64,000 bases of DNA, taken from Eledone cirrhosa (Eukaryota). A program made the position numbers and the translations under genes. Positions 1 to 31,041 of the stretch are shown piece after piece (position 1 is the first letter of the stretch; each line of letters begins with the position of its first letter). A model generated the notes under the pieces. The model was not told where the DNA came from. It saw nothing but the letters and a program-made list of their open reading frames with translations, and did no database searches. The DNA is taken from contig OZ024741.1 of NCBI GenBank assembly GCA_964016885.1, positions 87,730,001 through 87,794,000 of the forward strand. Direction: 5' to 3'.

Positions 1-469
1 CCGCTAATCCCAGACAGTCCCAGCGTGCATCTAAGATCCCGTTCCAGTCGCCCACTAACACTAACGAGCGGGATGTTCCAAGAAAGGTCTCCAGACGCCG
101 GAAGAAATCAGGCCGCCCTGCTCCTGTCGGGGCATAGACGGCCACTAGCCTGAAAGCTTGCCCGTCTCCGCTGGTCACGTCCAGCACCACAAACTTACCC
201 TCTGGGTCCAGGAAGATGGCCCGTATGGCGAGATCCAAACCTCTCCGAAAAAGCACAGCAACTCCTCCCCCCGATCCAGGACGGCTGGGAGATGCGTACA
301 CATCGTAGCCGCCGAAGATCGGTGCGAAGGCCCGTGCTTCGGAGATTCTGGTCTCGCTGATGGCCACTACATCTATGTTTAGTGACCTGAGGTCGTTGAG
401 CAGGTGACCCTGCTTCCATGACGACCCCAAGCCACGCGCATTTATGCTGCCTATTCTGAGTGAGGTCAT
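1..469 (-). CDS. Tx1 ORF2 N-terminus, apurinic-like endonuclease (partial)
   Basis: Motifs SINARGL, VAISET, VYAP and VGDWN read on the - strand; same protein as ORF 13774..15177. Confidence 0.88.
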   Translation of the reverse strand, partial: MTSLRIGSINARGLGSSWKQGHLLNDLRSLNIDVVAISETRISEARAFAPIFGGYDVYASPSRPGSGGGVAVLFRRGLDLAIRAIFLDPEGKFVVLDVTSGDGQAFRLVAVYAPTGAGRPDFFRRLETFLGTSRSLVLVGDWNGILDARWDCLGLA

Positions 470-504
470 GTTTAAAATAGGGTGGAAAAGATGGGAAAGA
501 CCAC

Positions 505-2551
505 TTACCGTACTTGATCGTCAGGTGAAGGGACCGTTGAATCGTCCCTTCGGCTGGTCGTCGGTTCTTCTATGAGTATGTCCGAATATACTCTCCGGTC
601 TCTGAAATCACCAACTGCGTTGGGGAATTTCGTTTTAATGTTTGTGTATTGTTTCTGTGCTATTTTTAGCAGTCTTATGTTAGTTGGCGTTTTGATTGGT
701 GCTGGTATTATGTAGTCGTGCTGTGAAATGTCTGTGTGTTCAATTATGTAAGTCATTAGTTTCTTGTGTGTATTTATTGCCGTGCATTTGTTTTTCTGGG
801 GGTGGGTGTGGTTCTGCTATTTTCTTGTCGTTGTTGCTGGGTGCGTGTGTTTTGTTGTTGTGTTTGCGATGTTGGTGCTTGTGGTGGTGGTGCTGAAGGT
901 GTTGTTGTTGTTGGCGGTGGGGTTGTCGCCGGTGGTGATGGTGGTGCTAGTGTGGGTGGTGATGGTGTTGGTGATGTTGCTGCTGTGAGTCTCTTTGCAG
1001 TAGCCTTTACCCTTTTTTCATTTCTTTCCTCCTTTTTCGAAGGCGACGATGCGCTGCTTCTGCGTTTGTGCCTTCTTACGACCTTTTGCCATCCCTCTCC
1101 CACCTCACACTCCATGTCTGATTCTGTGAGGTCGGGGAGGGGTACCAGCTCCACTCTTTCACTTGTTGTTGGTGATGTTTGCACTGGAGTCTCTGTTGCA
1201 GCTGCATTTGGTATTACTGTTGTTGTTGTTAATACTTCCACTGCTGCTGCTGTTTTTGATTTCCGTGGCGTGGGTATGGGTGCCACGGACCTATCGTTCC
1301 TGGTTGCCGCTTGTCCTGTTGCTGATAGCCGTGAATCCGGTTTCGGAAGGAGGGGGGTTTTCTCCTTTCTCAGGGTCTTCTCGTTGCAGAAGGCCCTGAG
1401 GTGAGTCTTCGATCCACAGCGAAAGCATTTCGGGCGTTTGCCCTCAACACTTATGGGCAGTTGAGTGCCGTTATCGAAGTCTATCACATCCGGGATAGCT
1501 TCGATGCACTCCTGGTTGGTTTGGATTAACATCTCAATGGAGGTGCCGACCCAATCTTCTCTTACTTTTTCTGTACTTGCAGTACAGTTGTTTTGTCCTC
1601 AATTCCGACGAGGACAGACGCGACCAGCCAAGAAGGGGCCATCCCGGAGGGGACGTGGGTCAGTTTGACCCTCACAATTTTTTGCCCGCAGTAGGAGGGC
1701 ACCAACACCATTTCCTCGCTCCTTAGGATCACTAAGGATTGAGCCTTTGCCTCCTGGGGTGTGGCAAAAAGCACGTCTACGGTGGCATATTTCTTGCCTC
1801 GGGTGATGTGCGTTTTCCGCTGCCACACAGACCCTAAGGCTTTTTGTATTTGAGCCTCTGTGGCTCTTTCAACCCTACGGGATTTTGTGGTTACTGTACG
1901 GTACGTGACCGTACAGTGCTGTTGGGTTTCGAAAAATGTTTCGGCTGCCTTGCAGATTGCTCGGTGTCCGGTTTTTGTCACTTTCTTCTTCGCTTCCTCT
2001 AATTCCTCATTCGTTATGAGGATGGTTTCCAGGTTCTTTGCGATACCTGCAAACGAGATTGGTTTTTCTTTGCTGCTGTTGTTGTTGTTGTTGTTGTCGT
2101 CAGAGCTGCTGTTACTTTTGTTGTTGCTACAGGTACTACGACTACTGCCGCCGCCGCTGTTGCTGTGGTTGTTGTTGTTGTTGCTGCTGCTTCTGTTGTT
2201 GTTGCTGCTAATGCTGTTGTTGTTTATGCTGCTACTGATGCTGTTGCGGCTGCTACTGTTGTTTTCCTTGTCACTGTTGCTGCTGCTGCTGTTATTACGG
2301 CTGCTACTGCTATTATTCCTGACGTCAGACGAATGAAATGGGTTTTCATATTTCCCGCACACCTTTTTCGTCGTTGTCGTCGTCGTCGTGGAGAAATCTT
2401 GCACACTTTGCACGTGATTTTTCTTTTCTGGCGTCGCTTGCGAAAGAGAAGGGAGGGAGAGAGACAATCTTCTCTCTGCTGTAGTGACGATTGAGGAAGA
2501 AGAAGACGGAATGAGTGGGAGTGACCTATGAAAATTCTTTTTCGTAGCCAT
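505..2551 (-). pseudogene. Tx1 ORF1 (gag-like; RRM-like core, CCHC knuckle, low-complexity linkers), two frameshifts
   Basis: ORFs 1562..2584, 774..1532 and 505..756 join into one protein. Knuckle CFRCGSKTHLRAFC. Core homologous to 15697..17259. Likely start MATKK at 2551. Confidence 0.82.
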
Positions 2552-2780
2552 GTTTTTTTTTTGTTTAAAATAAATATTGGGCACAAAACCCCAATAAGCG
2601 GTTATTTAACCCGAAGGGCCAAATAACGGGCAGAAAGACCCCTCTCACGAGGAGGAGGGTGTTTTTGTCTACAATTTGGTTAAAGTTTTAAACAATTTAC
2701 AATTGTTATAGCGGTCAAAATTTACAATACCTTACAGAGCCGAGCCTCCGTCAACCATAGCATTCAATAATAATAATAAT

Positions 2781-3440
2781 GTTTTCTTTATTAACCACAA
2801 GGGTTTACATAAAGTAGACATTAAAGACAGTACAGGACAATACAGGACGGTACAAATGGGCATTTCTGCATGTAAAAAAAACAGAGGATGTAATAAAATA
2901 ACAAAGAAAAATTCCCCAATAGGGGGGAGACTTCCGAGGGACATTTGTGGAGAAAGCCCATTAAAAGACCACAGTGACCCTGACCACCAGGGCAAGTGCC
3001 CTCTCCCAGTTTTCCACCTTTAATTTAGAGACACATACTCAGAGTAGGCCCATTCACTTAGGCTAAAGGAAGAGGGCGGGGAAATCCTCACGATGGACTC
3101 AGCTGATAGCTGGATCCGTCCTACACGTGACAGCAGGTGTTCGACATAAACCCACAAGTCAGCAATGCTCGGACACTGGACGAGTGCGTGCAGGATGGTT
3201 TCGTCGCCCTGCGCGCATCTCGGACATGCCCGGCTGACGGCACCTCCATGCCTGTAGAGTTTATCCCGAACTGGCAAAGCTCCCCGGTAGCACTGCCAGG
3301 CCAGGGATTTCTGGAAGTTGTCCATAGCCCCCGGCCCGAAAGTCCTTCCGAAGAGATTGGCTAGTTGATTTTCGTCGACGCCTAGAGTTTCTCCAAGTAC
3401 ATCGTCACTCTTCCCCTCCACTAATCCTCTATAGAACGCC
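2781..3440 (-). mobile_element. 5'-truncated Tx1 3' fragment with an internal deletion of about 220 bp
   Basis: Matches 11516-12389 (ORF2 C-terminal CPRC...H...C and the 3' UTR) but lacks about 11791-12008. Flanked by (AAT)n on both sides. Confidence 0.9.

Positions 3441-3536
<96 letters not shown>
3441..3536. repeat. (AAT)32 microsatellite, target or tail tract
   Basis: Read directly. Confidence 0.97.
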
Positions 3537-3537
<1 letters not shown>

Positions 3538-3667
3538 GAACAGCAAGAACCCTCCGATACGTCCTGAATATCTGAGGCTGCAGGTAGTGGCTTGATATTC
3601 AATCCAACGGACTTTCCAGTTAACCAACATCAATGACTGAGATTCAAGGAATAACAATAACAATAAC

Positions 3668-3765
<98 letters not shown>

Positions 3766-3766
3766 G
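3537..3766 (+). mobile_element. R4/Dong family B extreme 3' fragment with (AAC/AAT)n tail
   Basis: GTARTLRYVLNI* and 3' UTR match about 22403-22516, followed by about 115 bp of AAT-type tail. Confidence 0.9.
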
Positions 3767-4705
3767 GGAAGAAGACGCACGAGGTGGTAGAAGGTCATGA
3801 AATCGCTCCTCTTAAGTTTTTGATTTTTAACATATTTAAATCAATTGTGAAATAACAATTCTTAGTACAAATGTTGCATAAACCACCGAATCAGGTCCCA
3901 TAAAGTTTCGGATCCATATTATATTGTTGTATCGCTCAAATATTCAATTTTGTATTATATATTTTGTATTCAAAAAAAGAAAATGGTTATAAATGGGAAA
4001 AAAACACCCTCTGTCTACACTATATAGAACAGCCAAATAACAGCAATTTCACCAACACCAGAAACTTGATACACCACCTATCCCATCACACTAAATATAA
4101 CAGCCAGATAACGGCAATTTCACCAGCATCATGATAATAATTACTATTATTATTGTCTCAAATTTTAAAAAAATGTTTAATTCCAATTTTACGGGAATAT
4201 GTCAACACAAAATATAATAAAAATATATATTAAACATACGAACACAAACTCATAGATACTACATATCAGTAACCACAACGCCACCGCTGCCACCACCCCA
4301 CCCCATCCATCATTGCTACCACTATCCCATCGTCGCCGCCACCACTCCTTCAATGCTACCACCACTATTCCCCTGTTAACTTGAGAGAGAAAGGGGAAGG
4401 TGGCGGTATCACTAGACAAGGGAGAGGCTAGCAAAAGATATAAATAGATTGACTTAGTGACCTGGCCACCGGCCAAACGTCAACATCAACAACTATGGGA
4501 CTGCTGGCTCACCCCTTCCTCACCAACAATATAAAAAGCCCCGGCACCACCACCGACATAGCCAACAACAATAACAGCCAACTACAACAAAAAGTATATT
4601 ATATTATTGTAATACACTGGGTGATTGCTGGCCTTGTGCCTGGAGTGGAGACAATTATTAATAATTTCATTCTTAAGCCACGCAATGCTCACATTAAGGA
4701 ACCAC

Positions 4706-7700
4706 TCATGATAATAACAATTTAAAAAAACAACAAAAAGAAAACCCCGTGACCAAGAAATACCGGGATGGCGGCCGGCGGGGAATAGCCGTGTCTCTAG
4801 GGGAGAACGACCCCTCTAGTCTTGGTTGACACTCGTTCTAGAAGTGGTAACACGAAATGATTACCCCTTGGCGGATAAGGATAAAACGCGACAAAATAAA
4901 GTAAATGTCTAATGATAAAATCTCATTCCGGATCGGCCGTCACCCGGGTAAAAAAGGGCCGCGTCCCTCAGAGAGGAACCAGACTGGGGTCGAAAAATCA
5001 GCTAATGGTTCAAACCTTCCCATCACTTCGGAGCTGGAGACCTCCCATAACCGGAATACTCCTACTGTTGGCCCTCCATGCTCACCACCAAGAAATCCAA
5101 AGAAAAAGAGAGAAAAATGGTCAAGGGAAGATAATAAAGAAGTCCTTGAGGCTTTCTACACTGCCATGTACTACCCATCAAATACATCGAATACAGAACA
5201 GACATATATCAACTGGAAAAAGAAACATCCCGAAAACAGAGGCTATATTGACAATAACAAACTAGCCAATATACGAAGAAATATTGTAAGAAAAAAGTTA
5301 CTAACTGATATAGAAATTGATCAGATCAAGCTATTAGCACAAAGTCAGCGAAGGGAAAATGAAACATGTGTCAGTGAAAACGAGGTAAACTGTAACACTT
5401 CGAACCCCAGGGTTGGGGCGGAATCACTGGCAACAGAACAAATTAAAGAAAGGATCGAAAAAGTGGAGGGAGTGCATGCTCAGGATGAAACTCCAAATGA
5501 AAATAATGAGATCGTAAATGAGAATGAGCTTGCCAACTTGAAGGATGAAATTATGATCGAATGGATGAAAATGAAAGAATCTGACATGGGGCAACGAGAC
5601 ACCCTCCCTAAAATCCAGAACTCCAAACAGAACCAAAAGATAATACACAAGACTAACATAATTCTCAAAAACATTATCATCACAAACAAATTAAACATTA
5701 CTGATTTAAATCATCTCTATTATGCATCGGCTAAAGTCACCACTCACTTATGTGGAGGGAAGATGAAAAAACAAAGGAATTCCCACAAGAAATCTACTTG
5801 GCAAGAGAACATCAATCGCCAAATAAACCTTCTCCGATCTGACATAGAAATTTTAACAAACTATAAAGTAGGTGAACATGTTAAACAAACTAAACTTAGA
5901 AAATTGAAAAAAAAGTACAGTATAAAATCAACATGTGACATAGACATGCTGATAGAAATAATCAAGCAAAAAGTGTCGGCCAAAGCTGCTCGTATAAGGC
6001 GCTTTGAAAAACGATCTAGATTCTATAAGGACAATAATATGTTCAAAAACAACCAAAGAAACTTCTACAGAAAAATTGGTAAGTCAACAATAACTGCTAA
6101 ATCAATACCACCCAAGGAGGAAGTGCAAGAATTCTGGGAAAAGATCTGGGCCGAAGAAAAAGTTCATAACATACATGCCCCATGGATAGACAGACAAATG
6201 AAAGATACAGCTCACCTTGAGGAACAAACATGGGAAAATATAACAGTTGAACAGTTGCGCTTGGCTCTAAGAAAAACCAGCAAATGGAAATCCCCAGGAA
6301 AAGACAAAATACAAAACTTTTGGATAAATGCTTTCACAGTGTCTCATGAGCTGTTAGCCCAACTTTACAATGAAATAGTTAAGGAGCCAGAAAAGATACC
6401 ATCATGGCTAGTTAACGGCATTACATTCCTGCTTCCGAAGAATGATGAGACAAACAATCCCAAAAATTACAGACCGATAACTTGCTTGACCACAATGTAT
6501 AAAATTTTAACATCAGTCCTAACTGTACACATATGACCACCTGATAACAAATGACCTATTTCCCATTGAGCAGAAAGGGTGTAAACGAGGCTCATATGGC
6601 TGTAAGGATCAGCTTCTGGTTAACAAAATGATACTGGAATATTGTCATAATAGACACAAAAATCTATCGATTGTTTGGATAGATTATAAAAAAGCATTCG
6701 ATAGTTTGCCACACAGTTGGATTGAAAAATGTTTAGAGGATTTTCAAAATATCCCCCGTTGTCAGGAGGTTTTTGTCATTCAGTATGAAGACATGGAAAA
6801 CGACACTCCTTTTGAATAGTGAAACAAAATCACTGGAAGCTGGAGAAGTTAATATTAATTGTTGAATTTTTCAGGGTGACTCTTTATCACCGCTTTTATT
6901 CTGCATCGCACTTATACCATTAAGTAAAATGCTCAATGAAACAAAACATGGATATAAAGTCTATGACAAAACCATTAATCACCTGTTCTACATGGATGAC
7001 CTGAAACTATTTGCAAAAAATGATGAACAATTGCAAGGGCTATTATCCACTGTGAAGCAGTTCAGTGATGACATTAAAATGGAGTTTGGACTAGATAAAT
7101 GCGCCAAAGCAACGTTCACCAGAGGAAAGCTGCTGAAGAGTTCAGACATTAATCTTGATCGGGGGAACGTGATAAGAGAACTTGATCAAGAAAAAACTTA
7201 CAAATATCTAGGTGTTTGTGAAGGAGACGGAATCAAGCACTCGACAATGAGGGAAAGGATAAGGAAAGAATGTTACCGCAGAGTAAGAGCAATCTTAAGA
7301 ACGGAATTGAATGCAAGGAATAGGATCGATGCCATAAACACGCTTGCCATACCAGTAGTAACCTACAGTTACAATGTCATCAACTGGTCAAGCACAGAGA
7401 TCCGTAGGCTCGATACAAAAATTCGAAAATTCTTAACCATGCACAGAATGCATCACCCTAAGGCAGATATAGATAGAATATATCTCCCTAGGAAAGAAGG
7501 AGGACGTGGGTTAATCCAGTTAGACATTGCGTTGAAAACTGCAACAATTGGATTATCTACATATCTAAGGGAATCACATGATTGGATGATCAAACTCGTT
7601 TTGAAACACGAAAGCATCAAAAGATCATATTCCATTACAAAAGATGCACAAAGATACAGTAATGGACTACAAATTTCAGAAGTCCCATTTACTGCTGAAA

Positions 7701-8700
7701 TGGAAAACACAGAAAAAGCAAAGCAGGTAAAAGTAACTGCAAAGAAAGAACTGCTACAGAAACTGGCTAAGAAATGGCAAGAAAAGCCTCTGTATGGAAA
7801 ATACCCAGAGCGAGCTAACAATCCTGATGTTGACAAAACTTTAACCCATCAGTGGTTGGCATCCTCTGGACTGAAATCGGAGACTGAAGGACTGATTATA
7901 TCGGCACAAGATCAGTGTCTGCCAACAAAAAATTACCAAGCCAACATAATAAAAAATGGGTGCAGCCCATTATGCCGTGTATGCAAAAAACAACCAGAGA
8001 CCATTGACCATATAATTTCAATGTGCAGTCCTATAGCTCCAACCGAATACCTAAACAGGCATGACAGAGCTGCACAATACATACATTGGATAATGTGTAA
8101 GCATTTTGACCTGCCCCATCAAAAGAATTGGTGGGAGCATCAACCACCTCCCATACTTGAAAAAGATCACATCTCAATCTTGTGGAACTTTAGCATCCAA
8201 ACAGAACGAAAAATAGATGCAAATAGACCTGATATAATATTGAAGGACTTTCAAAAGAGGGTATGCCTGCTAATTGATATGTCTGTTCCAATAGACAAGA
8301 ATGTATCTATAAAAACATTTGAAAAATTGAGCAAGTATAAGGATCTGGAGATAGAAATTGGAAAAATGTGGAAATTGAGAACTAAAACAATACCAGTGGT
8401 TGTAGGCGCTCTGGGAATGATACCTAAGGGTCTAATGACTACTTATCGCAAATCCCAGGAAACCCGCGTATAGGAGAAATACAAAAGATAGTACTAATGG
8501 GAACTGCCCATATACTAAGGAAGATTCTGTCAATATAAGTACATCACAAGTCTAAACACTAAAGATGCATGTGTGAATATGTATGTTCTTTCTTGAACAT
8601 GGCGGACCTTGTTGTCTCTTGAGGTCACTGGTTGTGACTTGGTGATAACTCGTATGAACATAAAGCAAGATAAATGCAACTGTAATAATAATAATAATAA
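4706..8700 (+). mobile_element. R4/Dong-clade retrotransposon family A, near full length, with (TAA)n tail
   Basis: Single-ORF RT-RLE layout. The 3' UTR ends ...gataaatgcaactg then (TAA)n, the same as 18779. The 5' boundary is approximate. Confidence 0.9.
4905..8538 (+). pseudogene. Dong-A polyprotein: N-terminal Myb-like region, reverse transcriptase, CCHC finger and restriction-like endonuclease; disrupted
   Basis: KWSREDNKEVLEAFY; KSPGKDKI; NYRPITCL; IDYKKAFDS; LFYMDDLKLF; CRVCKKQPETIDHIISMC; RHD; RPDIILKD...LIDMSVP...KLSKY. Breaks near 6536, 6740, 6862 and 8430. Confidence 0.9.
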
Positions 8701-8707
8701 TGATAAT

Positions 8708-9029
8708 GTAAAAAGGATTTGGAATTGCCATGAAGGTAAAAAGGATTTGGAACTGCCATGAAGTCAAAGTGATCCCGATTGTCATAGGCGCACTAGGGAC
8801 TATCACAAAAAGTTTCCAGGGATGGTTAAAGAAAATTGGCCCCTTCACGCTTTTTGGAACGCTTCAAAAGGCATGCTTGCTGGGAACAGCAAGAACCCTC
8901 CGATACGTCCTGAATATCTGAGGCTGCAGGTAGTGGCTTGATATTCATTTCAACAAACTTTCCAGTTAACTAACATCAATGACTGAGACTCAAAGAGTAA
9001 TAACAATAATAATAATAATAATAATAATA
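8708..9029 (+). mobile_element. Dong-B 3' fragment with a duplicated 28-bp 5' end and tail
   Basis: VKRIWNCHEVKVIPIVIGALG...YVLNI* plus 3' UTR. gtaaaaaggatttggaaYtgccatgaag occurs twice in tandem. Confidence 0.88.
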
Positions 9030-11515
9030 ATGTTCGACAACAACCAGAAGATGCTGTTTGGACAGCTTGAAGGGAAAGAAAGAGGCAACGACTTGATCCC
9101 TGAGGCGGAACAAACTAAAACATTCTGGAGAGGAATATAGGAGCAGGATGTTAAACATAATGACCAGGCAGTGTGGATTGAGACAGTACAGAAGGAGATT
9201 AGTGAACAGGCATACCAACAAACTGATTTGAGTATCACAGTTGAAACTCTTAAGGGGCAGGCCAAAAAACTAACCAACTGGAAATCACCAGGCCCAGATG
9301 GTGTGCAGGGGTATTGGATTAAAAATATAACATCCCTCCACCCGAAACTGACAACCATGTTCAATGACTGCTTGATGTCAGGTGAGGTACCAGAGTGGTT
9401 GACAAAAGGTACCACAGTTCTGATAATGAAAGACCGAATCAAGGGTAATGATGTTACCAACTATAGACCTATCACATGTCTGTCCGTAATGTGGAAACTG
9501 TTGACAAGCATTATGTCTGAGGAAATCTACCATCACCTCCACACAAACAACTTGTTACCGGACGAACAGAAAGGATGCCGAAAGAAGTCACGTGGTACAA
9601 AGGACCAGTTACTTATTGATAAGATGGTAATGAGGAATTGTAAGAGGAGACACACTGGTCTTGCCATGGGATGGATAGACTACAAAAAGGCATTTGACAT
9701 GGTGCCTCATTCTTGGATCACCAAAAGCCTGGAGATCTTCAAGGTGGCAGATAACATCAGACAGTTGTTGGGCAAAAGTATGAAGTCCTGGGAAACAGAG
9801 TTAACATCAACTGGAGAATCCTTGGGAAGCGTGAAGATCAAGAGAGGTATCTTCCAGGGAGATAGTCTGTCCCCTCTGTTGTTTGTCCTTGTCCTGGTGC
9901 CCCTGACCAGTGTTGAGAGCAGGATACAGGTTGGGAAAGGGAGGGCTTACCTCAATCACCTCCTCTTCATGGACGATCTTAAGCTCTTCGGGAAGAGTGA
10001 GAAGGAGTTGGATGTGCTTGTTGACACTGTCCGTATTTTCACCAATGATATATGTATGCAATTTGGTATTAGTAAGTGTGGAGTCATTGTGATGAAGAAG
10101 GGTAAGTTGAGCAGAAGTAACGGAATCCAGGTACTAACGGGTGAGATGATAAAGGAAATTGACTCTGAAGAAGGATACAAGTATTTGGGCGTTCTGGAGG
10201 CTGATGACATCAAGAACAGAAAAATGAAGGAATTGATAAGAACTGAATACATTCGGAGAGTAAGGAGCGTATTAAAGTCACATCTGAACAGTAGGAATGC
10301 CATAAGTGCAGTAAATTCCCGAGCTGTGTCTATTATTAGGTACAGTGCGGGAATTCTGAGATGGAATGTTGCTGAACAGAAAGAAATGGATAGGAAGACT
10401 AGGAAGCTATTGACTATCTACAACATGTTCCACAAGAGGAGTGATGTCGATAGACTCTACTTAAGGAGATCTGAGGGTGGAAGAGGTCTTATCAGCATAG
10501 AGGACTGTGTTCAGATGGAGAAAAACAACCTACACAAATACGTGACTGATAGTAAGGAGCCAATGCTCAGAACTGTACTGAAGGAGGGGACAATAGGCCA
10601 GGGGATGTCCAAGGAGGAAATAACATCAAGGAGAAAGAGCAGCCTTCAGGAAAAATCCCTTCATAGTACCTTCTTTGAGAAAACTGAATTTAGAGATCCA
10701 CAGACACGGAACTGCTTGAAAAGAGGAGACCTTAAAAAGGCTACAGAAGGAATGTTAATGGCTGCGCATGAGCAGGCCCTTAAAACGAAGTGGTTGAAAC
10801 ACCATATTTACAAGGAGGAGGCTAGCCCACTGTGCAGGATCTGTGGAGAGAGAGAGGAGACTGTGGCTCACATTGTATCCGAGTGCAAACACCTAGCCCA
10901 GACTCACTATAAGGGCTGGAGACATGATGTGGTGGGCAGGGTGATCCACTGGCACCTGTGCAAAGTAAACAATTTACCACATTCTGAGAAGTGGTATGAG
11001 CATAGGCCAGAGGCGGTGATAGAGAACAATCAGGTGAAGGTGCTGTGGGATTTTAGGATACAGACGGACAAAAAACTGGAACACAATAGACCTGACCTGG
11101 TGGTTGTGGACAAAGAAAAATGATCGTGTCTGATTGTGGAAGTGGCCTGCCCTTTCGACACGAGAGTGCAAGAGAAGGAGAGGGAGAAAATTAATCGATA
11201 CCAGGACCTAAAGTGGGAGGTGAAAAGGATTTGGAACTGCCATGAAGTCAAAGTGATCCCGATTGTCATAGGCGCACTGGGGACTATCTCCAAAAGTTTC
11301 CAGGGATGGTTAAAGAAAATCGGCCCCTTCACGCGTTTTGGAACGCTTCAAAAGGCATGCTTGCTTGGAACAGCAAGAACCCTCCGATACGTCCTGAATA
11401 TTTGAGGCTGCAGGTAGTGGCTTGATATTCATTCCAACGGACTTTCCAGTTAACCAACATCAATGACTGAGATTCAAGGAATAACAACATTAATAATAAT
11501 AATAATAATAATAAT
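9030..11515 (+). mobile_element. Dong-B 5'-truncated copy (RT-RLE, with stop codons and a small deletion) plus tail
   Basis: ORFs 9171..11123 and 11136..11405: LLFMDDLKLF, CRICGEREETVAHIVSEC, RHD, RPDLVVVD. Starts at the position matching about 20054 of the full copy. Confidence 0.92.
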
Positions 11516-11758
11516 GTTTTCTTTATTAACCACAAGGGTTCACATAAAGTAGACATTAAGGACAGTACAGGACAATACAGGACGGTACAAAAGGGCATTT
11601 CTGCGTGTAAAAAAACAGAGCTTGAAATAAAATAACAAAGAAAAATTCCCCAATAGGGGGGAGACTTCCAAGGGACATTTGTGGAGAAAGCCCATTAAAA
11701 GACCACAGTGGCCCTGACCACCAGGGCAAGTGCCCTCTCCCAGTTTTCCACCTTTAAT

Positions 11759-14700
11759 TTACAGACACATACTCAGAGAAGGCCCATTCATTCGGGCCAT
11801 ACTTGCTTCTCTCACCCATCTTTCAACAAAATGCTGGGAAGAGAGCACTTCCCTCTCTACCCTGATTTTCCTTTTCAAATGAAATTTGAAAAAGTTAATC
11901 AGGGCATCACCGAAGAGGTAAGTGCTCGTCTTCAGCCCTTTCAAACGTGTCCACCATACTATCTCTTTCGCCATGGCCACCAGACAGATAAAAACTGCCT
12001 GCCCTTCCAGGCTAAAGGAAGGGGGCGGGGCAATCCTCACGATGGACTCAGCTGATAGCTGGATAGGTCCTACACGTGACAGCAGGTGTTCGACATAAAC
12101 CCACAAGTCAGCAATGCTTGGACACTGGACGAGTGCGTGCAGGACGGTTTCGTCGCCCTGCGCGCATCTCGGACATGTCCGGCTGACGGCACCTCCATGC
12201 CTGTAGAGTTTATCCCGAACTGGCAAAGCTCCTCGGTAGCACTGCCAGGCCAGGGATTTCTGGAAGTTGTCCATAGGCCCCGGCCCGAAAGTCCTTCCGA
12301 AGAGATTGGCTAGTTGATTTTCGTCGACGCCTAGAGTTTCTCCAAGTACGTCGTCGCTCTTCCCCTCCACTAATCCCCTATAGAACGCCAAGGTGGAGTT
12401 TCCACCGATCACATTGCCCGATTGGTCGAGGGCTGTGAGCGCCTGAAGACATTCCAGTCTCCAAGCGCTCCCTCTCGGTCTTCGCTTGACCCAGGACTGC
12501 AGCTCCGTCAAGGAGACGAGCTGGGGAAAAACGTGTCTTGCAAACGGCGACCACACCTGATCACCGTCGAGGAAGAGGTGGAGATGTCGTAGCCTGAGCG
12601 CGTGTCTGCGCATCATCAACCACGGCATGCCCATCCCTCCACGTAGCGGGTGTTGACAGCAGATGGACCGCCTGACCATCGGAGCGCGTCCCTTCCACAA
12701 GAAGCGAAAGAGCAAACGCTCCAGCGCAGTCAGGCGGGGCTTAGGACAAGGTACGACGGTCAGGCGGTAGTAGATGACGGATGCGATGTACGCATTCGCC
12801 ACCTCCGCTCGACCTTTCAGGGATAGCTTCCTCTCGGCCCATTTCTGGGTGAGAGAAGCCACCCTGCTCGTCACCTCGTCCCAGTTTTTGTCCGTCTGGA
12901 GGTCTGGACCGAACCAGACCCCTAGCAATTTAACAGGTCCGTCCGTCCAGCGCCCGACGACGCTGTTGGATGGCATGGACCTGCCTCTCCAGGTGCCGAG
13001 CTGCAGGCCCACTGACTTATCCTGGTTGATCATTGCTCCTGTCACCGCTTCGTATTCTCTTAGTGTAGTGCCGATCGCCTCGATGTGTTTGGCGTTCGAC
13101 ACCACTACGGTGACATCGTCGGCATATGCTGACACGGATCTTCCGCATCCTAGTTCGCGCGGGACCCCCCTCAACGTCTCCAGTTTGTGCAGTAATGGCT
13201 CGAGAGTCAATACGTACAATAGGGACGAGAGGGGACATCCCTGGCGGACCGAGCGCATGATGTTGAACGGTTCCGAAAGGTGACCGTTCACTCTCACTAC
13301 AGAGCAGATGTCGCTGTGCATGGCAGCGATCCAGCCTCTGAAGACGGGCCCAAAGCCAGCCGCCCTCAGGACTGCCGCTAGGTAACGATGGTCGACCCTA
13401 TCGAAGGCTTTCGACTGATCTAAATTGATCAAAGACCCACCCGTGCCAGGTTCCCTAGCTACCCTCTCTATGATGTATCGCATGAGGTGGAGGTTGTCGT
13501 GGATGGATCTATCGGGAATGGCGCATGTCTGTGCCTCTCCCACCAGACCACCAACGACAAGCGCCAACCTCTTTGCTAGCACCTTGGCCAAAATCTTGAA
13601 CTCTGTGTTTAGCAGAGTTATGGGCCTAAAATTATCTGTGTTATCCCCCTTGTTCGGATCCTTTCTCACCAGCGCCACCGCTCCTCGGCTCACAGAGCTG
13701 GGAATTCTCCCGTTCTGTTGCCAGTTGCAGTAGACGTCCGCCAAGAGGCCTCCGAACAAGTTTGGCATTTGTACTAAAGTTCATAGGGCAGACCATCCAA
13801 ACCAGGCGATTTACCCCTTGTGCAACTAGTCATTGCATCCCGTACTTCAGCGGTTGTTATCGTCTTTTCGCAACACTCCGCCTCAGTGGCCGAAAGCTGC
13901 GGCAGTCCGTCGAGGTAGACACTAAAGTCCATCCCTCGATCCGGCCCGCCACTGCCCCCGAACAGTTGAGCGAAGTGTCGCTGAAAAGCTTCACACATTT
14001 TCCCGGGATCGAGTAGCATGCGCCCGTCGTGGTCCATCAAAGACCGGATCGTGGATTTGTTGCCACGACGCGCCTCCGCCACTCGGGCCCATTGAACGGC
14101 TTTCGTCCCCTCGTGTCTGAGAGCACGCACCCTAGCTCTGACAACGCAGCCTTCGTGCTTTGCATTGAAGAATTGGTCAAGGGCCAATTTCGCCGCAAGT
14201 ACGTCGGTCGCGATGCCTTTGCTAAGCGCCTCATCTAATTTTCTAACTAATTCTTCCTCTGCTCTATTTTTCTCTATTGCTAAAGTCTTACTAAACCTAA
14301 TGGACTCTATTCTAATTGCTCTTTTCAGAGAAAACCACCACTTGTTGTTGACGATGGCCCCCGTCAACGCCCGCTTAACTAGTTCGCTAATCCGGTCTCT
14401 GTAGGCCTTGCGCGCTGGTAAGGACGCGTTTAGCTTCCAGTAGCCGGGTCCTCGTCTATAAAGCCTATCTAAGTCAAGCACACAGATCACGAATTTGTGG
14501 TCCGTGTAGCTGACTATCTTGAATTGTGGACAGCCTATGCTAGACCTATCTATTTCCCTACAAAATACTCTATCTAGATATGATCTGGATGACCCTATGC
14601 GATTTGTCCAAGTCCACATTGGTACATTCGGGAAATCCATTCGGTACCTGTCAGACAGTTCAAAACGTCTGAGCAGGTTGGTGAGACTCTTGCACCCTCC

Positions 14701-15177
14701 TTCCCTATCCACTAATCCCACACAATCCCAGCGTGCATCTAAGATCCCGTTCCAGTCGCCCACTAACACTAAAGAGCGGGACGTTCCAAGAAAGGTCTCC
14801 AGACGCCGGAAGAAATCAGGCCGCCCTGCTCCTGTTGGGGCATAGACGGCCACTAACCTGAAAGCTTGCCCGTCTCCGCTGGTCACGTCCAGCACCACCA
14901 ACTTACCTTCTGGGTCCAGGAAGATGGCCCGTATGGCAAGATCCAAACCTCTCCGAAAAAGCACAGCAACTCCTCCCCCCGATCCCGGACGGCTGGGAGA
15001 TGCGTACACATCGTAGCCGCCGAAGATCGGTGCGAAAGCCTGTGTTTCGGAGATTCTGGTCTCGCTGATGGCCACTACATCTATGTTTAGTGACCTGAGG
15101 TCGTTGAGCAGGTGGCCCTGCTTCCATGACGACCCCAAGCCACGCGCATTTATGCTGCCTATTCTGAGTGAGGTCAT
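11759..15177 (-). pseudogene. Tx1 ORF2: APE endonuclease, reverse transcriptase and C-terminal zinc finger; one 1-nt frameshift near 13774
   Basis: ORFs 13774..15177 (SINARGL, GDWN, SYLDR, TDHK) and 11759..13768 (NFRPITLLN, DQSKAFDRV, RQGCPLS, AYADD, CPRC...H...C). Confidence 0.93.
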
Positions 15178-15211
15178 GTTGAAAAGGAGTGGAAAAGATG
15201 GGAAAGACCAC

Positions 15212-17208
15212 TTACCTTACTTCTCGTAGGGGAAGGACGGCTTTTCCATCCTTTTCACTGCTTGTGGCCTCCTCAGGAAGGATGTCCTTATAAATCCTCC
15301 TGGAGAGTGCTTGTCGGAAGTCTCCGATGTCTTTGGGGAATTTTTGTTTTAGTGTCATGTACGTTTTCTGTGTGATGCGAGTGATTTGTATGTGTGGCGC
15401 TGGTGTGAATTTTGGGGTTGTTGTGTAGTCTTTTTCTGTGATGCTGGTGTTGTGTTGGATGTAGTATAATAATTGCTTGTTGTTCAAATTTAATGCTGTG
15501 TAGTGTGTATCGTTTTGGTTGTTTTGTTTTGTTTGCGTTTGTTGTGGGTTTGTTTCTGTTTCGCATTTTGGTGACTTTTGTGGTGTAGGTGATGGTGGTG
15601 CTGGGGATAATGATGGTGATGGTGTTGGTGTTTGGGTTGATGGGGTTGGTGATGCTGGTGTGGATGGTGGCATATCTGTCCTAACTTTTTTGTTTCTTAG
15701 TTTATTTGTTTCCCTCTGTATTTTGTTTTTGGAGGGGGAAGGAAGAGAATTTTTTCTTTTTTGGTTTCTTTTTTTTTTCCGGATATCGTTTCCCACTCCT
15801 CGTCGTCACAATCTGTCTCCAGTTGTGATAGGCCGGGGAGTGGAAAATCCTCCACAGCCGTTAGTTTTGGTTGTGGTGTGGTGGATGGTGTAGGCGCTGG
15901 TGCTAGTTCTGAAGCGTTGGGTGGTGGTGGTGTTGGTTTTGCTGGTGGTGGTAGTGGTGTTGGTTTTGCTACTGTTGCTGGGGTTGTTGCTGTTATAGTT
16001 GCTTCTGTTGTTGCTGCTACAGTTGTTGCTGCCATCTCTGCTACTGGTGGTGTTGATGGTTGTGTCACTGGGGTGGGTAGGAGAGGTGGCCTCAACCTTT
16101 TAGCCTGAGGGCAGAAAGCCCTTAGGTGGGTTCCTTCACCACAAACGACACACCTAGGTCTTCTGCCCTCGACAATTACCGTGAGGTGGCTGCCGTCAGT
16201 GAGGTCTATTACCTCTGGGATCTCCTCAATGCTTTTTTGGTCCGCTTGGATCAGGAGCTCCATCCCAGATCCGGACCAGTTTTCCTGCTTTTCTTTTGCT
16301 ACTGCTATTATTTTCGTGTTGGCTTCGATGCCAGCGAGGACAGCCGCTATTAGCCAGGGAATTTCGATGGCCGGTGGAACGTGGGTCACCCTGATCTTTA
16401 CGAGTCTCTGGCCACAATAGCTTGGGACGAGTGTGAGGTCGTCACTTTTTAATGGGGCCATGGAGTGTTCTCTAGCCTCCTCTGGTGTTTCGAAGAACAC
16501 ATCCACGGTTCCATACTTTTGCCCACGTCTGATGTGGGTTTTTCTTGCCCACACATGTCCCAAAGCTTTTTGGATTTGGGACTCGGATGCCCGTTCCACT
16601 CGGCGCGATTTTACATTTATTGTTCTATACGACACGGTGCACAGGCGCCGATGCTCCATTTTATTAGGTGGGGGGGTGAGGCTGACCCTGTACCCATCTT
16701 TCTTTACCATTTGTTTGGCATTTTCTAAATCTTCTTGAGTTACCGTGAACGCTTCGAATTGTTTTGCTACGATGGCGAAACTGAGGGTCGGTTTTATAAT
16801 GTCATTGTTGTTGTTGTTGCTATCGTTAATATTAATTTTATTTTCAGTTGTGGTGGTGGTGACGTCAGTCGTCTTTGGTGGGGAAGAGTCCATTTTGCTT
16901 GATTTCATTTCGACATCACGAGTTAATTTATTTTTTTCTTCTTTTGTTTCTGTTGTCGCGGTGGTGGTGGTGGTGGTGGTGGTGGTGGTTGTCGCGGTGG
17001 TGGTGGTGGTGGTGGAGGCTTTAACACCTGCAGTCATTGGTAATGGCGGGAAATGAATGTCTGCCTGAGACAAATTTAAAATATTGCTACTGCTTATATT
17101 TTTTTTTGTGTTGGCAAACGTAGTAACATTTACAATGGTGGTGTCGGTGTGAGGTGTTATTTTGTGAGGAAGGCTTTCAGCTGCTTCGTGCAGAGGTGAA
17201 GTAGCCAT
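15212..17208 (-). pseudogene. Tx1 ORF1 (gag-like with CCHC knuckle); one frameshift in an A-run near 15780
   Basis: ORFs 15697..17259 and 15212..15796. Knuckle CVVCGEGTHLRAFC. Likely start MATSP at 17208. Confidence 0.85.
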
Positions 17209-17417
17209 TTTTTTTTCAAAGAAATTTTTGATAATAATAAAAGTTAAAATTTTGGGCACAAGGCCCCAATCTTTTTAGGTGTCCTTTTCGGAAAACAATG
17301 TATGTGTGCTTATAAACAGTTAACAATAAAATTTTCCATAAATGGCAATTTTTAAACAAACGGAAATAACAAACCTTTGCGGAGCTCACGATAATACGAT
17401 TTCCTACGTAGGTCGCC

Positions 17418-17477
<60 letters not shown>

Positions 17478-17480
<3 letters not shown>

Positions 17481-18777
17481 TGGTCAAGCACAGAGATCCG
17501 TAGGCTCGATACAAAAATTCGAAAATTCTTAACCATGCACAGAATGCATCACCCTAAGGCAGATATAGATAGAATATATCTCCCTAGGAAAGAAGGAGGA
17601 CGTGGGTTAATCCAGTTAGACATTGCGTTGAAAACTGCAACAATTGGATTATCTACATATCTAAGGGAATCACATGATTGGATGATCAAACTCGTTTTGA
17701 AACACGAAAGCATCAAAAGATCATATTCCATTACAAAAGATGCACAAAGATACAGTAATGGACTACAAATTTCAGAAGTTCCATTTACTGCTGAAATGGA
17801 AAACACAGAAAAAGCAAAGCAGGTAAAAGTAACTGCAAAGAAAGAACTGCTACAGAAACTGGTTAAGAAATGGCAAGAAAAGCCTCTGTATGGAAAATAC
17901 CCAGAGCGAGCTAACAATCCTGATGCTGACAAAACTTTAACCCATCAGTGGTTGGCATCCTCTGGACTGAAATCGGAGACTGAAGGACTGATTATATCAG
18001 CACAAGATCAGTGTCTGCCAACAAAAAATTACCAAGCCAACATAATAAAAAATGGATGCAGCCCATTATGCCGTGTATGCAAAAAACAACCAGAGACCAT
18101 TGACCATATAATTTCAATGTGCAGTCCTATAGCTCCAACCGAATACCTAAACAGGCATGACAGAGCTGCACAATACATACATTGGATAATGTGTAAGCAT
18201 TTTGACCTGCCCCATCAAAAGAATTGGTGGGAGCATCAACCACCTCCCATACTTGAAAAAGATCACATCTCAATCTTGTGGAACTTTAGCATCCAAACAG
18301 ACCGAAAAATAGATGCAAATAGACCTGATATAATATTGAAGGACTTTAAAAAGAGGGTATGCTTGCTAATTGATATGTCTGTTCCAATAGACAAGAATGT
18401 ATCTATAAAAACATTTGAAAAATTGAGCAAGTATAAGGACCTGGAGATAGAAATTGGAAAAATGTGGAAATTGAGAACTAAAACAATACCAGTGGTTGTA
18501 GGCGCTCTGGGAATGATACCTAAGGGTCTAATGATTACTTATCGCAAATCCCAGGAAACCCGCGTATAGGAGAAATACAAAAGATAGTACTAATGGGAAC
18601 TGCCCATATACTAAGGAAGATTCTGTCAATATAAGTACATCACAAGTCTAAACACTAAAGATGCATGTGTGAGCATGTATGTTCTTTCCTGAACATGGCG
18701 GACCTTATTGTCTCTTGAGGTCACTGGTTGTGACTTGGTGATAACTCGTATGAACATAAAGCAAGATAAATGCAACT

Positions 18778-18832
<55 letters not shown>
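17478..18832 (+). mobile_element. Dong-A 5'-truncated copy plus (TAA)n tail
   Basis: Near-identical to 7382-8683 (ORF 17535..18569). Preceded by (AAT)20 at 17418-17477. Confidence 0.92.
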
Positions 18833-18835
<3 letters not shown>

Positions 18836-21800
18836 AATAATAACAATGAAACTTATGCTTATTCATTTTGGGGGCCCTTTCTGCCCGTGTGTTTGTTTGT
18901 TTATGTGTGTCCGTATACAGCGTGGTGATAATGCCACACAAGGGCCAAGTGGGATGGCGGATCCACAGATGGCTATGTAAACATACATTCGCCAATCCTC
19001 GATAAGAGTGTTTAAATATCGAACATAAACAGTTCGAATAACGGTGAAATGGAGACTAGAACGTCATGTGACAGACTCTCACCCAACAGGTGCCCCCTGG
19101 CTCAGCAGCAGGAACCTGACTGTCAACCAAATACTGCTGATGTTGGAGGAAGAAGAAGAAGGAAAGGGGCCAGAACCAACTGGACGAAAGAATTGAATAG
19201 AACTGTTATGCAATGCTACCTGAAAAGTAACCCCAAGGAGAGGGGCTACAGGAGACGGATGCATAACATCTGGAACGAGATTGGTTTATTTAAATTAGAT
19301 GAACAAAAATTGGCCGGGCAGGCTCGGGTAATAAGAACTAATGGGTGGATAAGCGAGCTGGAACTGGAGGAACTGAGCAGAGAGAATGGCTTGGAGATGG
19401 CGGGTGTAGTATGCCAGACAAGCGAGCCGGCGGGAAATGAAGGTGAGGAGGTCCTGAGAACGGAGGAACCACCCGAAGCAGACAATGATCTGAATACTGA
19501 GATAAATAATACCTGGAACAGAGATACGGCCACTGAGGAGATGAATGCTGACGGGCTAGGACAAGATTCGGTTGACATCCTAAATTTAGTGGTAGATGAG
19601 TTGAACAATGATAGTGGGAGACCTATGAACCTAAGATTTGTAGACAGGAAAAAGTTAAAAGAAACAACAGCTAAGGTAAACAAAGTCATCCCATACCTTG
19701 AGGCGAGGAGTCTTCACCAGTGCAACAATATCCTCAAAGCAACAGCAAATACGGTGAGGAAACTACTTGGTATAAAAGCGAGAGGAAACAACAGACAAGA
19801 AAGAGCAGAGCCGTGATGGAAGAAGCGACTGAGTGGGCAAATCGGGGAAATGAGAAATGACATAGGAAAGCTTGAGTCACTACTGAATGGGACACTAAAA
19901 AACATAGGCACTAAAAATAGACTGGAAATAAAATACAAAACTAGGAGTAAAAAGCTAAATATTATCATAGAGGAATTGAAGCAACGCATTGTAGCAAAGA
20001 GTGCCAAAATCAGGCGATACGAGAACAGAGTCAGTCAGTATAAACAGAACCGCATGTTCGACAACAACCAGAAGATGCTGTTTGGACAGCTTGAGGGGAA
20101 AGAAAGAGGCAACGACTTGATCCCTGGGGCGGAACAAGCTAAAACATTCTGGAGAGGAATATGGGAGCAGGATGTTAGACACAATGCCCAGGCAGGGTGG
20201 ATTGAGACAGTACAGAGGGAGATCGGTGAGCAGGCACAGCAACAGACTGATTTGAGTATCACAGTTGAAACTCTTAAGGGGCAAGCCAAAAAACTAACCA
20301 ACTGGAAATCACCAGGCCCAGATGGTGTGCAGGGGTATTGGATTAAACATTTAACATCCCTCCACCCGAAGCTGACGGCCATGTTCAATGACTGCTTGGT
20401 GTCGGGTGAGGTGCCAGAGTGGTTGACAAAAGGTACCACAGTTCTGATAATGAAAGACCGAATCAAGGGTAATGATGTTACCAACTATAGACCTATCACA
20501 TGTCTGCCCGTAATGTGGAAACTGTTGACGAGCATTGTGTCTGAGGAAATCTACCATCACCTCCACACAAACAACTTGTTGCCGGACGAACAGAAAGGAT
20601 GCCGAAAGAAGTCACGTGGTACAAAGGACCAGTTGCTTATTGATAAGATGGTAATGGGGAATTGCAGGAGGAGACACACTGATCTTGCCATGGGATGGAT
20701 AGACTACAGAAAGGCATTTGACATGGTGCCTCATTCCTGGATCACCAAAAGCCTGGAGATCTTCAGGGTGGCAGATAACATCAGACAGTTGCTGGGCAGG
20801 AGTATGGGGTCCTGGGAGACAGAGTTGACATCAACTGGAGTATCCTTGGGAAGCGTGAAGATCAAGAGAGGTATCTTCCAGGGAGATAGCCTGTCCCCTC
20901 TGTTGTTTGTCCTTTCCCTGATGCCCTTGACCATTATGCTGCGAAAAGTGAGAGCAGGATACAAGTTGGGAAGGGGAGAGCTTACCATCAATCACCTCCT
21001 CTTCATGGACGATCTTAAGCTCTTCGGGAAAAGTGAGAAGGAGTTGGATGTGCTTGTTGACATTGTCCGTATTTTCAGCAGTGATATATGTATGCAGTTT
21101 GGTATTGGTAAATGTGGAGTCATTGTGATGAGGAGGGGTAGGTTGAGCAGAAGTAACGGGATCCAGATACCAACAGGTGAGATGATAAAGGAAATTGACT
21201 CTGAGGAAGGATACAAGTATTTGGGCGTTCTGGAGGCTGATGGCATAAAGAACAAAAAAATGAAGGAATTGTTAAGAACTGAATACATTCGGAGAGTAAG
21301 GAGCGTATTGAAGTCACATCTGAACAGCAGAAATGCCATAAGCGCAGTAAATTCCCGAGCTGTGTCTATTATTAGGTACAGTGCGGGAATTCTGAGATGG
21401 AATGTTGCTGAACAAAAAGAAATGGATAGGAAGACTAGGAAGCTATTGACTATCTACAACATGTTCCACAAGAGGAGTGATGTCGATAGACTCTACCTAA
21501 GGAGATCTGAGGGTGGAAGAGGTCTTATCAGCATAGAGGACTGTGTTCAGATGGAGAAAAACAACCTATACAAATACGTGACCTATAGTAAGGAGCCAAT
21601 GCTCAGAGCTGTACTGAAGGAGGGGACAGTAGGCCAGGGGATATCCAAGGAGGAAATAACATCAAGGAGGAAGAGCAGCCTTAAGGGAAAATCCCTTCAT
21701 AGTACCTTCTTTGAGAAAACTGAATTTAGAGATCCACAGACATGGAACTGGTTGAGAAGAGGAGACCTCAAAAAGGCTACAGAAGGAATGCTAATGGCTG

Positions 21801-22527
21801 CGCAGGAGCAGGCCCTCAAAACGAAGTGGTTGAAGCACCATATCTACAAGGAGGAGGCTAGCCCACTGTGCAGGATCTGTGGAGAGAGAGAGGAGACTGT
21901 GGCTCACATTGTGTCCGAGTGTAAACACCTAGCCCAGACCCACTATAAGGGCTGTAGACACGATGTGATGGGCAGGGTGATCCACTGGCACCTGTGCAAA
22001 GTAAACAATCTACCACATTCTGAGAAATGGTATGAGCATAGGCCAGAGACGGTGATGGAGAACAGTCAGGTGAAGGTGCTGTGGGATTTTAGGATACAGA
22101 CGGACAAAAAACTGGAACACAATAGACCTGACCTGGTGGTTGTGGACAAAGAAAAAAGATCGTGCCTGATTGTGGATGTGGCCTGCCCGTTCGACACGAG
22201 AGTGCAAGAGAAGGAGAGGGAGAAAATTAACCGATACCAGGACCTAAAGTGGGAGGTGAAAAGGATTTGGAACTGCCATGAAGTCAAAGTGATCCCGATT
22301 GTCATAGGCGCACTGGGGACTATCTCCAAAGGTTTCCAGGGATGGTTAAAGAAAATCGGCCCCTTCACGCTTTTTGGAACGCTTCAAAAGGCATGCTTGC
22401 TTGGAACGGCAAGAACCCTCCGATACGTCCTGAATATCTGAGGCTGCAGGTAGTGGCTTGATATTCAATCCAACGGACTTTCCAGTTAACCAACATCAAT
22501 GACTGAGATTCAAGGAATAACAATAAC

Positions 22528-22587
<60 letters not shown>
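18833..22587 (+). mobile_element. Dong-B apparently full-length element plus tail
   Basis: 5' UTR, long RT-RLE ORF, short 3' UTR ending gattcaagg, then (AAT)n. Confidence 0.93.
19049..22441 (+). pseudogene. Dong-B polyprotein (about 1130 aa) with a single in-frame TGA at 19814
   Basis: ORFs 19049..19816 and 19850..22441 are in the same frame (EP*WKKR, probably Trp). NWTKELNRTVMQCY Myb-like region, FMDD RT motif, CCHC finger and PD..D endonuclease. Confidence 0.92.
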
Positions 22588-22591
<4 letters not shown>

Positions 22592-30888: not shown

Positions 30889-31041
30889 TGAGTTCAAATC
30901 CAGCCACGGTTAGCCATGCCTTCCATCATTACGGGGTCTATAAAATAAAGTATCAATAACGCACTGCAGTCGATTTAATCGACTTTCTCCCTCCCTTTTC
31001 CTTTCAAATTGCTGGTCTTGTGCCACAAAGTAGAAACAATT
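30889..31041 (+). mobile_element. tRNA-derived SINE (octopus-type), 5'-truncated
   Basis: B-box gagttcaaatc plus the ...cggggtc(g)ataaaataaagta... core shared with many copies in the window. Confidence 0.75.

Follow-up and report, generated by a model that had tools for sequence, protein, structure and literature searches.

The left half of a 64,000-nucleotide window of the Eledone cirrhosa genome (contig OZ024741.1 of assembly GCA_964016885.1, forward-strand positions 87,730,001 to 87,794,000; positions below are those of the window) contains non-LTR retrotransposons clustered in (AAT)n arrays. One kind, a long interspersed element (LINE) with an APE-type endonuclease, is represented by three copies, a, b, and c, and one 3' fragment. 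Copies a and b, both on the minus strand, very probably form a real mosaic pair. One of the two appears to be a recombinant, with a single young lineage of open reading frame 2 (ORF2) joined to two long-diverged 5' halves, each consisting of the 5' untranslated region (UTR) and ORF1. The join was mapped to about 10 nt at the ORF1 stop.

Discordant divergence on the two sides of the ORF1 stop

On the ORF2 side, the two copies were nearly identical. Copy a (1 to 2765) runs past the left edge of the window after 469 nt of ORF2, whose first 156 codons, encoding the APE endonuclease, lie at 1 to 469 (ATG at 467 to 469). Compared without gaps with positions 14709 to 15177 of copy b, this segment had 15 mismatches in 469 nt, which confirmed the identity of about 97% estimated by the first-pass annotation, and 151 of the 156 amino acids were identical (pS 0.081, pN 0.015). 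Ten of the 15 differences were synonymous (26% expected, P = 0.0013), and pS between b and the 3' fragment was of similar size (0.063). Thus, the ORF2 of copy a represents a separate family member and not a copy of b. The likeness continued into the pyrimidine-rich spacer between the ORFs (470 to 504 in a, minus strand; pyrimidine fraction, 0.76), as had been claimed for most of the spacer. The block at 482 to 509 of a, which holds the ORF1 stop (505 to 507) and a donor-like GTAAGT (GT at 508 to 507), equaled 15189 to 15216 of b over 28 nt without a difference, and the 12 nt adjoining the ORF2 ATG differed by three substitutions and one indel.

On the ORF1 side, the copies were deeply diverged. 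In ORF1 of a (505 to 2551), homology to b identifies two RRM-like domains; a CX2CX4HX4C knuckle and a C-terminal domain are also present, with frame breaks near 1570 to 1590 and near 765 to 775; ORF1 of b (15212 to 17208) has two RRM folds and a CCHC knuckle, with one frame break in a T run near 15771 to 15780. Amino acid identity was 53%, 53%, and 42% in three blocks (88/167, 34/64, and 36/85) and 52% in the core (120/229), close to the 50% first proposed. At four-fold degenerate sites, 44 of 61 differed in ORF1 versus 7 of 86 in ORF2 (Fisher P = 4e-16), and pS was 0.68 to 0.83 versus 0.08, with the dN of ORF1 well below its dS. The collapse of nucleotide identity described earlier at this motif was seen as a step drop, although not to background: identity remained at about 57%, and homology persisted to the last codon. 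Similarly, the 5' UTRs (2552 to 2765 in a, 17209 to 17417 in b), credited in the first-pass annotation with short shared motifs only, were weakly alignable: the local score of 52 exceeded the best of 500 base shuffles (47).

In a tree of 21 ORF1 cores, made up of the three copies and those 18 homologues (of 150) that had at least 170 aligned residues, a and b clustered with 97/94 support, which places the exchange between sister families. The two ORF1s are thus homologous sister families rather than unrelated cassettes.

The breakpoint was located by a two-rate change-point fit of a versus b across positions 1 to 780 of copy a. The best change points were 515 and 509, and the whole interval from 505 to 516 (minus strand) was within 2.6 log units, whereas a change at the ORF2 ATG (470) was about 7 log units worse. 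The ORF1 side had 118 differing columns of 275, and the ORF2 side had 20 of 515. The change point coincides with the ORF1 stop inside GGTAAG, the very motif to which the first-pass annotation had assigned the swap.

A faster-evolving ORF1, with no recombination at all, could be considered for such a contrast, because the ratio of ORF1 to ORF2 divergence between b and c was 2.5 to 3.6. Calibrated in this way, however, the ORF2s of a and b should be 77 to 83% identical, and 97% was observed; copy c is decayed, which blurs the prediction but too little to close the gap. Silent-site saturation in ORF1 and a change that was a step and not a gradient rule this explanation out, and we give it next to no credence. 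Discordant divergence on the two sides of a single breakpoint, the mark of an interfamily recombinant LINE, was observed for a and b. The window shows a single exchange event, between homologous sister ORF1s; of the proposal that one ORF2 is served by interchangeable ORF1 cassettes, the recombinant join was upheld and the interchangeability was not.

Formation of the join

The mosaic was probably made when the reverse transcriptase (RT) or its cDNA switched from one sister family to the other, with the conserved stop/donor motif as the switch point. The cDNA would copy ORF2 and the spacer during target-primed reverse transcription and would then move onto the RNA of the sister family or anneal, at the (AAT)n target, to a copy of that family already in place. 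The motif common to both families would serve as the microhomology: AAGTA-N-GGTAAG was alike in a and b at 11 of 12 nt, with GGTAAG at the end of ORF1 in all three copies and the five further upstream bases matching in a and b. Because a crossover at this motif leaves both ORFs whole, the product would have an intact ORF1 with its stop codon, an intact spacer, and an intact ORF2 start and could go on replicating. Three routes to mosaic L1 elements are named in PMC3600994: DNA recombination, annealing of cDNA to a copy that already resides where the insertion takes place, and template switching by the RT.

The first of these routes has some appeal here. With (AAT)n targets in common and elements stacked head to tail, sister families lie side by side, so that a deletion or ectopic crossover between neighbors in the array, at the short shared motif, could also have made the join. 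In fact, several LINEs are crowded in the (AAT)n arrays, and the (ATT) tail of the 3' fragment adjoins the 5' end of copy a in the same orientation. However, homology at the join was at most 28 nt, the ORF2 of copy a is under purifying selection, and chance DNA recombination should mostly hit dead copies, as argued in PMC3600994. We therefore regard an origin at the DNA level as unlikely, though it deserves to be kept in view.

Copy a could instead be an element of the old family that received a short converted tract, comprising the spacer and the start of the endonuclease, from the b family. The window stops 469 nt into this ORF2 with identity still high at position 1, which would accommodate such a tract; no second breakpoint occurred within the 469 nt, and the only 3' part adjoining copy a (2781 to 3440) belongs to the b family, though it is a separate insertion. 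This explanation is distinctly unlikely.

An assembly chimera is more improbable again. No read or contig was seen across the junction of copy a, the contigs having been aligned to b, but several features of the copy are hard to reconcile with an artifact. The 15 ORF2 differences from b show a synonymous excess; the stop, spacer, and ATG are kept in register, with an exact shared block of just 28 nt; and the spacer indel of copy a was also present in a public sequencing run (X1).

The direction of the proposed RT switch is weakly inferred, with a as the recombinant and b as the native pairing. The spacer paired with the ORF1 tail of b at rank 2 of 33 windows and with that of a at rank 20 of 34. 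No RNA structure was shared across the three junctions (z scores of -1.5, -2.4, and -3.6, with different helices). Around the ORF2 start of copy a (453 to 482, minus strand), spacer bases specific to this copy and the beginning of ORF2 form an 8-bp stem with the ATG in the loop; b folds otherwise.

Public sequencing runs were consulted for the wider distribution of the junction. Part of the b junction region was contained in 20 of the 24 listed runs (16 studies), none recorded as RNA, and assembled contigs of four runs (X1, X4, X6, and X8) were aligned to b 13800 to 16950 at 85% likeness. Contig depth is not copy number, and this threshold admits more distant ORF2 families. Contigs of X1, which may be the window's own sample, covered 30 of 30 bins, with many variant contigs over the ORF1 of b; two X1 contigs carried the T insertion behind 15185 that distinguishes the spacers of a and b. 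In X4, X6, and X8, which bear three different organism labels, pieces of the b ORF1 region (15187 to 16950) were 96 to 100% alike, which could reflect either close relatives or recent transfer.

Summed depth fell at the ORF2 start from 704,000 to 283,000 in X1, from 545 to 76 in X4, and from 853,000 to 42,000 and then 416 in X6. In X6, 10 of the 16 bins over the b ORF1 had depths of 274 to 830, and the other six were higher, up to 610,000, with the peak over GGT-rich sequence; a contig of depth 12,440 covered the spacer at 15185, and the depth at 15230 was 495. At the X6 sites listed, the alternative letter was carried by 7 to 92 contigs in ORF2 and by 0 to 4 in the b ORF1 (17 at one site). 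These values give a weak hint that, in the X6 organism, the majority of copies carrying this ORF2 lead into a sequence different from the b ORF1, perhaps another ORF1 partner. An X4 contig ending at 15187 was considered as a graph fork at the breakpoint and was not used, because spacer variants fit it too, and no meaning was attached to the 4 of 30 bins that had no cover in X8.

Several observations weigh against the proposed RT switch or its direction. The present data fit an RNA-level switch and DNA-level recombination alike, and the ORF2 of copy a is visible over 469 nt only. For the direction, the spacer of c paired equally well with the tail of b, and 92 of 1,000 synonymous recodings did as well. 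Among the runs, X8 had no depth step at the ORF2 start; no listed contig bridged either junction by 31 letters on each side; no a-type loose end was found among 24 of 2,828 loose ends; and the junction of copy a had no direct read support, as contigs were aligned to b only.

Searches further afield were unproductive. A junction 20-mer had one match in metagenome contigs, on a bacterial-looking contig that showed no similarity to the window by blastn or by tblastx, and scans for related loci gave an 18-residue match as the sole candidate; both were judged to be chance. Viral sequences searched with the ORF2-start motif gave no match. Word-index searches with ORF1 gave none either, and one of them, which counts as weak evidence, was aimed at ORF1-ORF2 fusion models.

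The donor-like site at the end of ORF1

The ORF1 stop is overlapped by a strong 5' splice site-like sequence, which was retained in all three copies. In copy b, the spacer, the ORF1 stop (15212 to 15214), and the donor-like AAG/GTAAGT (GT at 15215 to 15214) lie within 15178 to 15216 on the minus strand. Scored with donor-site weights, this site was tied for first among 291 GT sites in b, was second among 121 in a, and was first among 237 in c. Downstream of the donor, the nearest AG follows a pyrimidine tract at a distance of 52 nt in b and 53 nt in a, and deletion of the 52-nt or 53-nt segment would fuse the two ORFs in frame. In copy c, the segment is 62 nt with a poor GAG end, and the join is in frame only with an alternative tail frame (the frame break lies in an A run); this tail frame aligned best to the ORF1 tail of Argonauta (score 38, with the other 17 comparisons at 25 or below). 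Of the five homologues that share this ORF1 tail, two terminate in Gly-Lys or Gly-Lys-Ser, a protein-level feature that would fit the motif.

A join made by cis- or trans-splicing at this donor, the splicing-linked route suggested in the first-pass annotation, would account for a breakpoint on a strong donor-like site. However, splicing would delete the GT and what follows, and both a and b keep the donor, the spacer, and the ORF2 ATG; a junction from which a GT-AG segment has been precisely removed, by which spliced retrotransposed elements (SpIREs) are recognized, was not observed. In addition, an equally strong donor match lies within ORF2 at 14906, and spliced L1 copies are mostly dead ends according to PMC5860796. 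This suggestion was therefore set aside as extremely unlikely.

The second donor-like site is found in the endonuclease coding sequence of both copies (14906 in b and 198 in a, minus strand) and is not among the top five in c. In the 3' UTR of b (11600 to 11640) and in the fragment (2865 to 2905), both on the minus strand, a T-rich tract ending in CAG forms a candidate acceptor just below the filter. If the ORF1 donor were spliced to this CAG, the result would be an ORF1-only RNA with a 3' tail.

It is doubtful that the motif serves as a conserved, functional 5' splice site while also being a standing exchange point, at which one ORF2 lineage swaps several ORF1 families in proportions that vary from one octopod species to another. 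There is a similarly small chance that a retained intron of 52 to 62 nt, containing the ORF1 stop, the spacer, and the ORF2 ATG, is spliced out to yield an in-frame ORF1-ORF2 fusion. Three results speak against splicing. Of the 19 ORF2 homologues printed, 17 start with Met near the ATG of b and the other two are truncated, although automatic gene calls favor Met. At E ≤ 1e-3, the endonuclease and RT of b had no match in any of the 150 ORF1 homologues listed. Finally, no 52-nt skip was present among 15 of 562 joints, which is no proof of absence. Reinitiation is one of two routes described for L1 in PMC5381506, and reinitiation past a short spacer explains the ORF1/ORF2 layout without splicing.

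Relatives, genomic setting, and significance

The layout of ORF2 places the element in the L1 superfamily. Copy b ORF2 (11759 to 15177, minus strand, with a single frame break near 13775) matched PF03372 (5e-14), PF00078 (4.9e-29), and PF13966 (3.4e-8) above cut-off, giving an APE endonuclease, an RT, and a zinc-binding zf-RVT region. Its best Protein Data Bank match was human L1 ORF2p (E of about 1e-33), and R2 proteins followed at 1e-13 to 4e-16; the RT is thus nearer to L1 than to R2, a comparison that rests on 10 matching sequences. For ORF1, a Pfam scan gave nothing above cut-off. Its predicted model (pLDDT 82.5) matched tandem-RRM proteins with a best E of 5e-5 and low TM-scores, its neighbors in the Atlas were zf-CCHC and ZCCHC3-like, and the CX2CX4HX4C knuckle is present in all three copies. 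The element thus has the type I layout (RRM plus CCHC knuckle), which is associated with Tx1 in the part of PMC5203782 consulted, and Tx1 membership is suggested by this domain layout, although no named Tx1 element was among the 120 ORF2 matches listed. Among those matches, the closest named eukaryotic relative was from Argonauta (69%), and seven of the nine ORF1 homologues looked up bear Octopus or Argonauta names, which makes an octopod the probable host.

Two groups of database proteins stood apart. One protein (P0005) labeled as from a Herbaspirillum metagenome-assembled genome was 70% identical to the ORF2 of b and is probably host DNA inside a bacterial bin. In four others (P0132, P0141, P0162, and P0237, one named Octopus sinensis), a piece of the ORF1 core is joined to unrelated domains; these models may be exonized LINE pieces or annotation artifacts.

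Full-length copy b (11516 to 17417, minus strand) begins at its 5' end next to (AAT)20 (17418 to 17477) and terminates in an (ATT)n tail after a 3' UTR at 11516 to 11758. The 5' UTR of copy a adjoins the (AAT)5 tail (2766 to 2780) of the upstream fragment. This fragment (2781 to 3440, minus strand) is of the same ORF2 family, is 5' truncated, keeps its 3' UTR, and is 96 to 97% identical to b; its internal deletion was examined as an intron loss and rejected, because the boundaries are not GT-AG. (ATT)n starts copies a and b and the fragment and also ends b and the fragment. Copy c (25840 to 30886, plus strand) is decayed and of a more distant family (ORF2 about 70% identical to b in nucleotides; ORF1 core 67/222 amino acids), with ORF1 from 25840, GGTAAG at 27888, and the ORF2 ATG at 27935. 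Its orientation is opposite to that of a and b and its ends are indistinct; target-site duplications are unreadable in the microsatellite. In the 5' part of its ORF1 (25942 to 26333), a stretch of about 140 nt is duplicated internally with 84% likeness, and a dispersed SINE-like repeat family (30883 to 31040 and many sites at 32600 to 55500) includes a copy that truncates its 3' end.

Several copies of a second non-LTR kind lie head to tail on the plus strand at 4905 to 11487 and 17478 to 25146 and end in (AAT)n. In the pieces scanned, an RT was present and no APE match was found. Some copies are nearly identical: 17478 to 18779 and 7382 to 8683 at 99%, and 19969 to 22523 and 22591 to 25145 at 98%. 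From their TAA target, these copies are putative Dong-R4 elements.

Interfamily recombination and replacement of the 5' end are established in mouse and horse L1 (PMC3600994 and PMC5872511, in the parts consulted). As described in the excerpt of PMC3600994, mouse L1MdTf and L1MdGf likewise carry the 5' part and ORF1 of one family on the 3' part of another, and a young 3' end is proposed to have recruited an older 5' end by template switch or cDNA heteroduplex. Their breakpoints fall either within ORF2 or within the coiled coil, and the parent families are a few million years apart; by contrast, the join of a and b is at the ORF1 stop, with ORF1s 52% identical and silent sites saturated. Horizontal acquisition of ORF1 by CR1/L2 elements also involves discordant ORF1 and ORF2 histories and RRM plus CCHC ORF1s but, in the portion of PMC4120745 seen, was inferred from deep cross-clade trees without breakpoints, whereas the exchange here is recent, between sister families, and finely mapped. 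Recruitment of 5' UTRs in mammalian L1 (PMC5381506) similarly gives a new 5' end with ORF2 retained; here, a short UTR of about 210 nt traveled with the whole ORF1.

Among mollusks, ORF1 and ORF2 trees differ in gastropods, with no breakpoints given in the consulted part of PMC11203168. Thirteen recently active L1-Tx1 families are reported alongside Dong-R4 in Octopus vulgaris (PMC13282606, available text), a pairing that resembles the content of the window, where the Dong-R4 label is putative. The strings "chimer" and "recombin" are absent from the main text of that paper as available, and its supplements may already catalogue this family. Literature searches, with subscription papers outside their scope, listed no title that dealt with the exchange of ORF1 among LINEs of cephalopods or with a donor at the ORF1 stop.

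Interfamily recombination of L1 is thus already known, and the present case differs in the depth of the divergence between the ORF1s, the exact inter-ORF breakpoint, and the host. Outside mammals, the mosaic represents a recent, breakpoint-resolved replacement of a LINE 5' half by that of a family whose ORF1 protein is only 52% identical. One implication is that ORF1 proteins and promoters that differ greatly can work with this ORF2; another is that family definitions based on the RT alone can conceal separate 5' lineages. If the donor is used, it would provide an unreported mode of ORF2 expression. If exchange recurs at this one motif, octopus genomes would offer a natural test of ORF1 or promoter turnover as an escape from host control.

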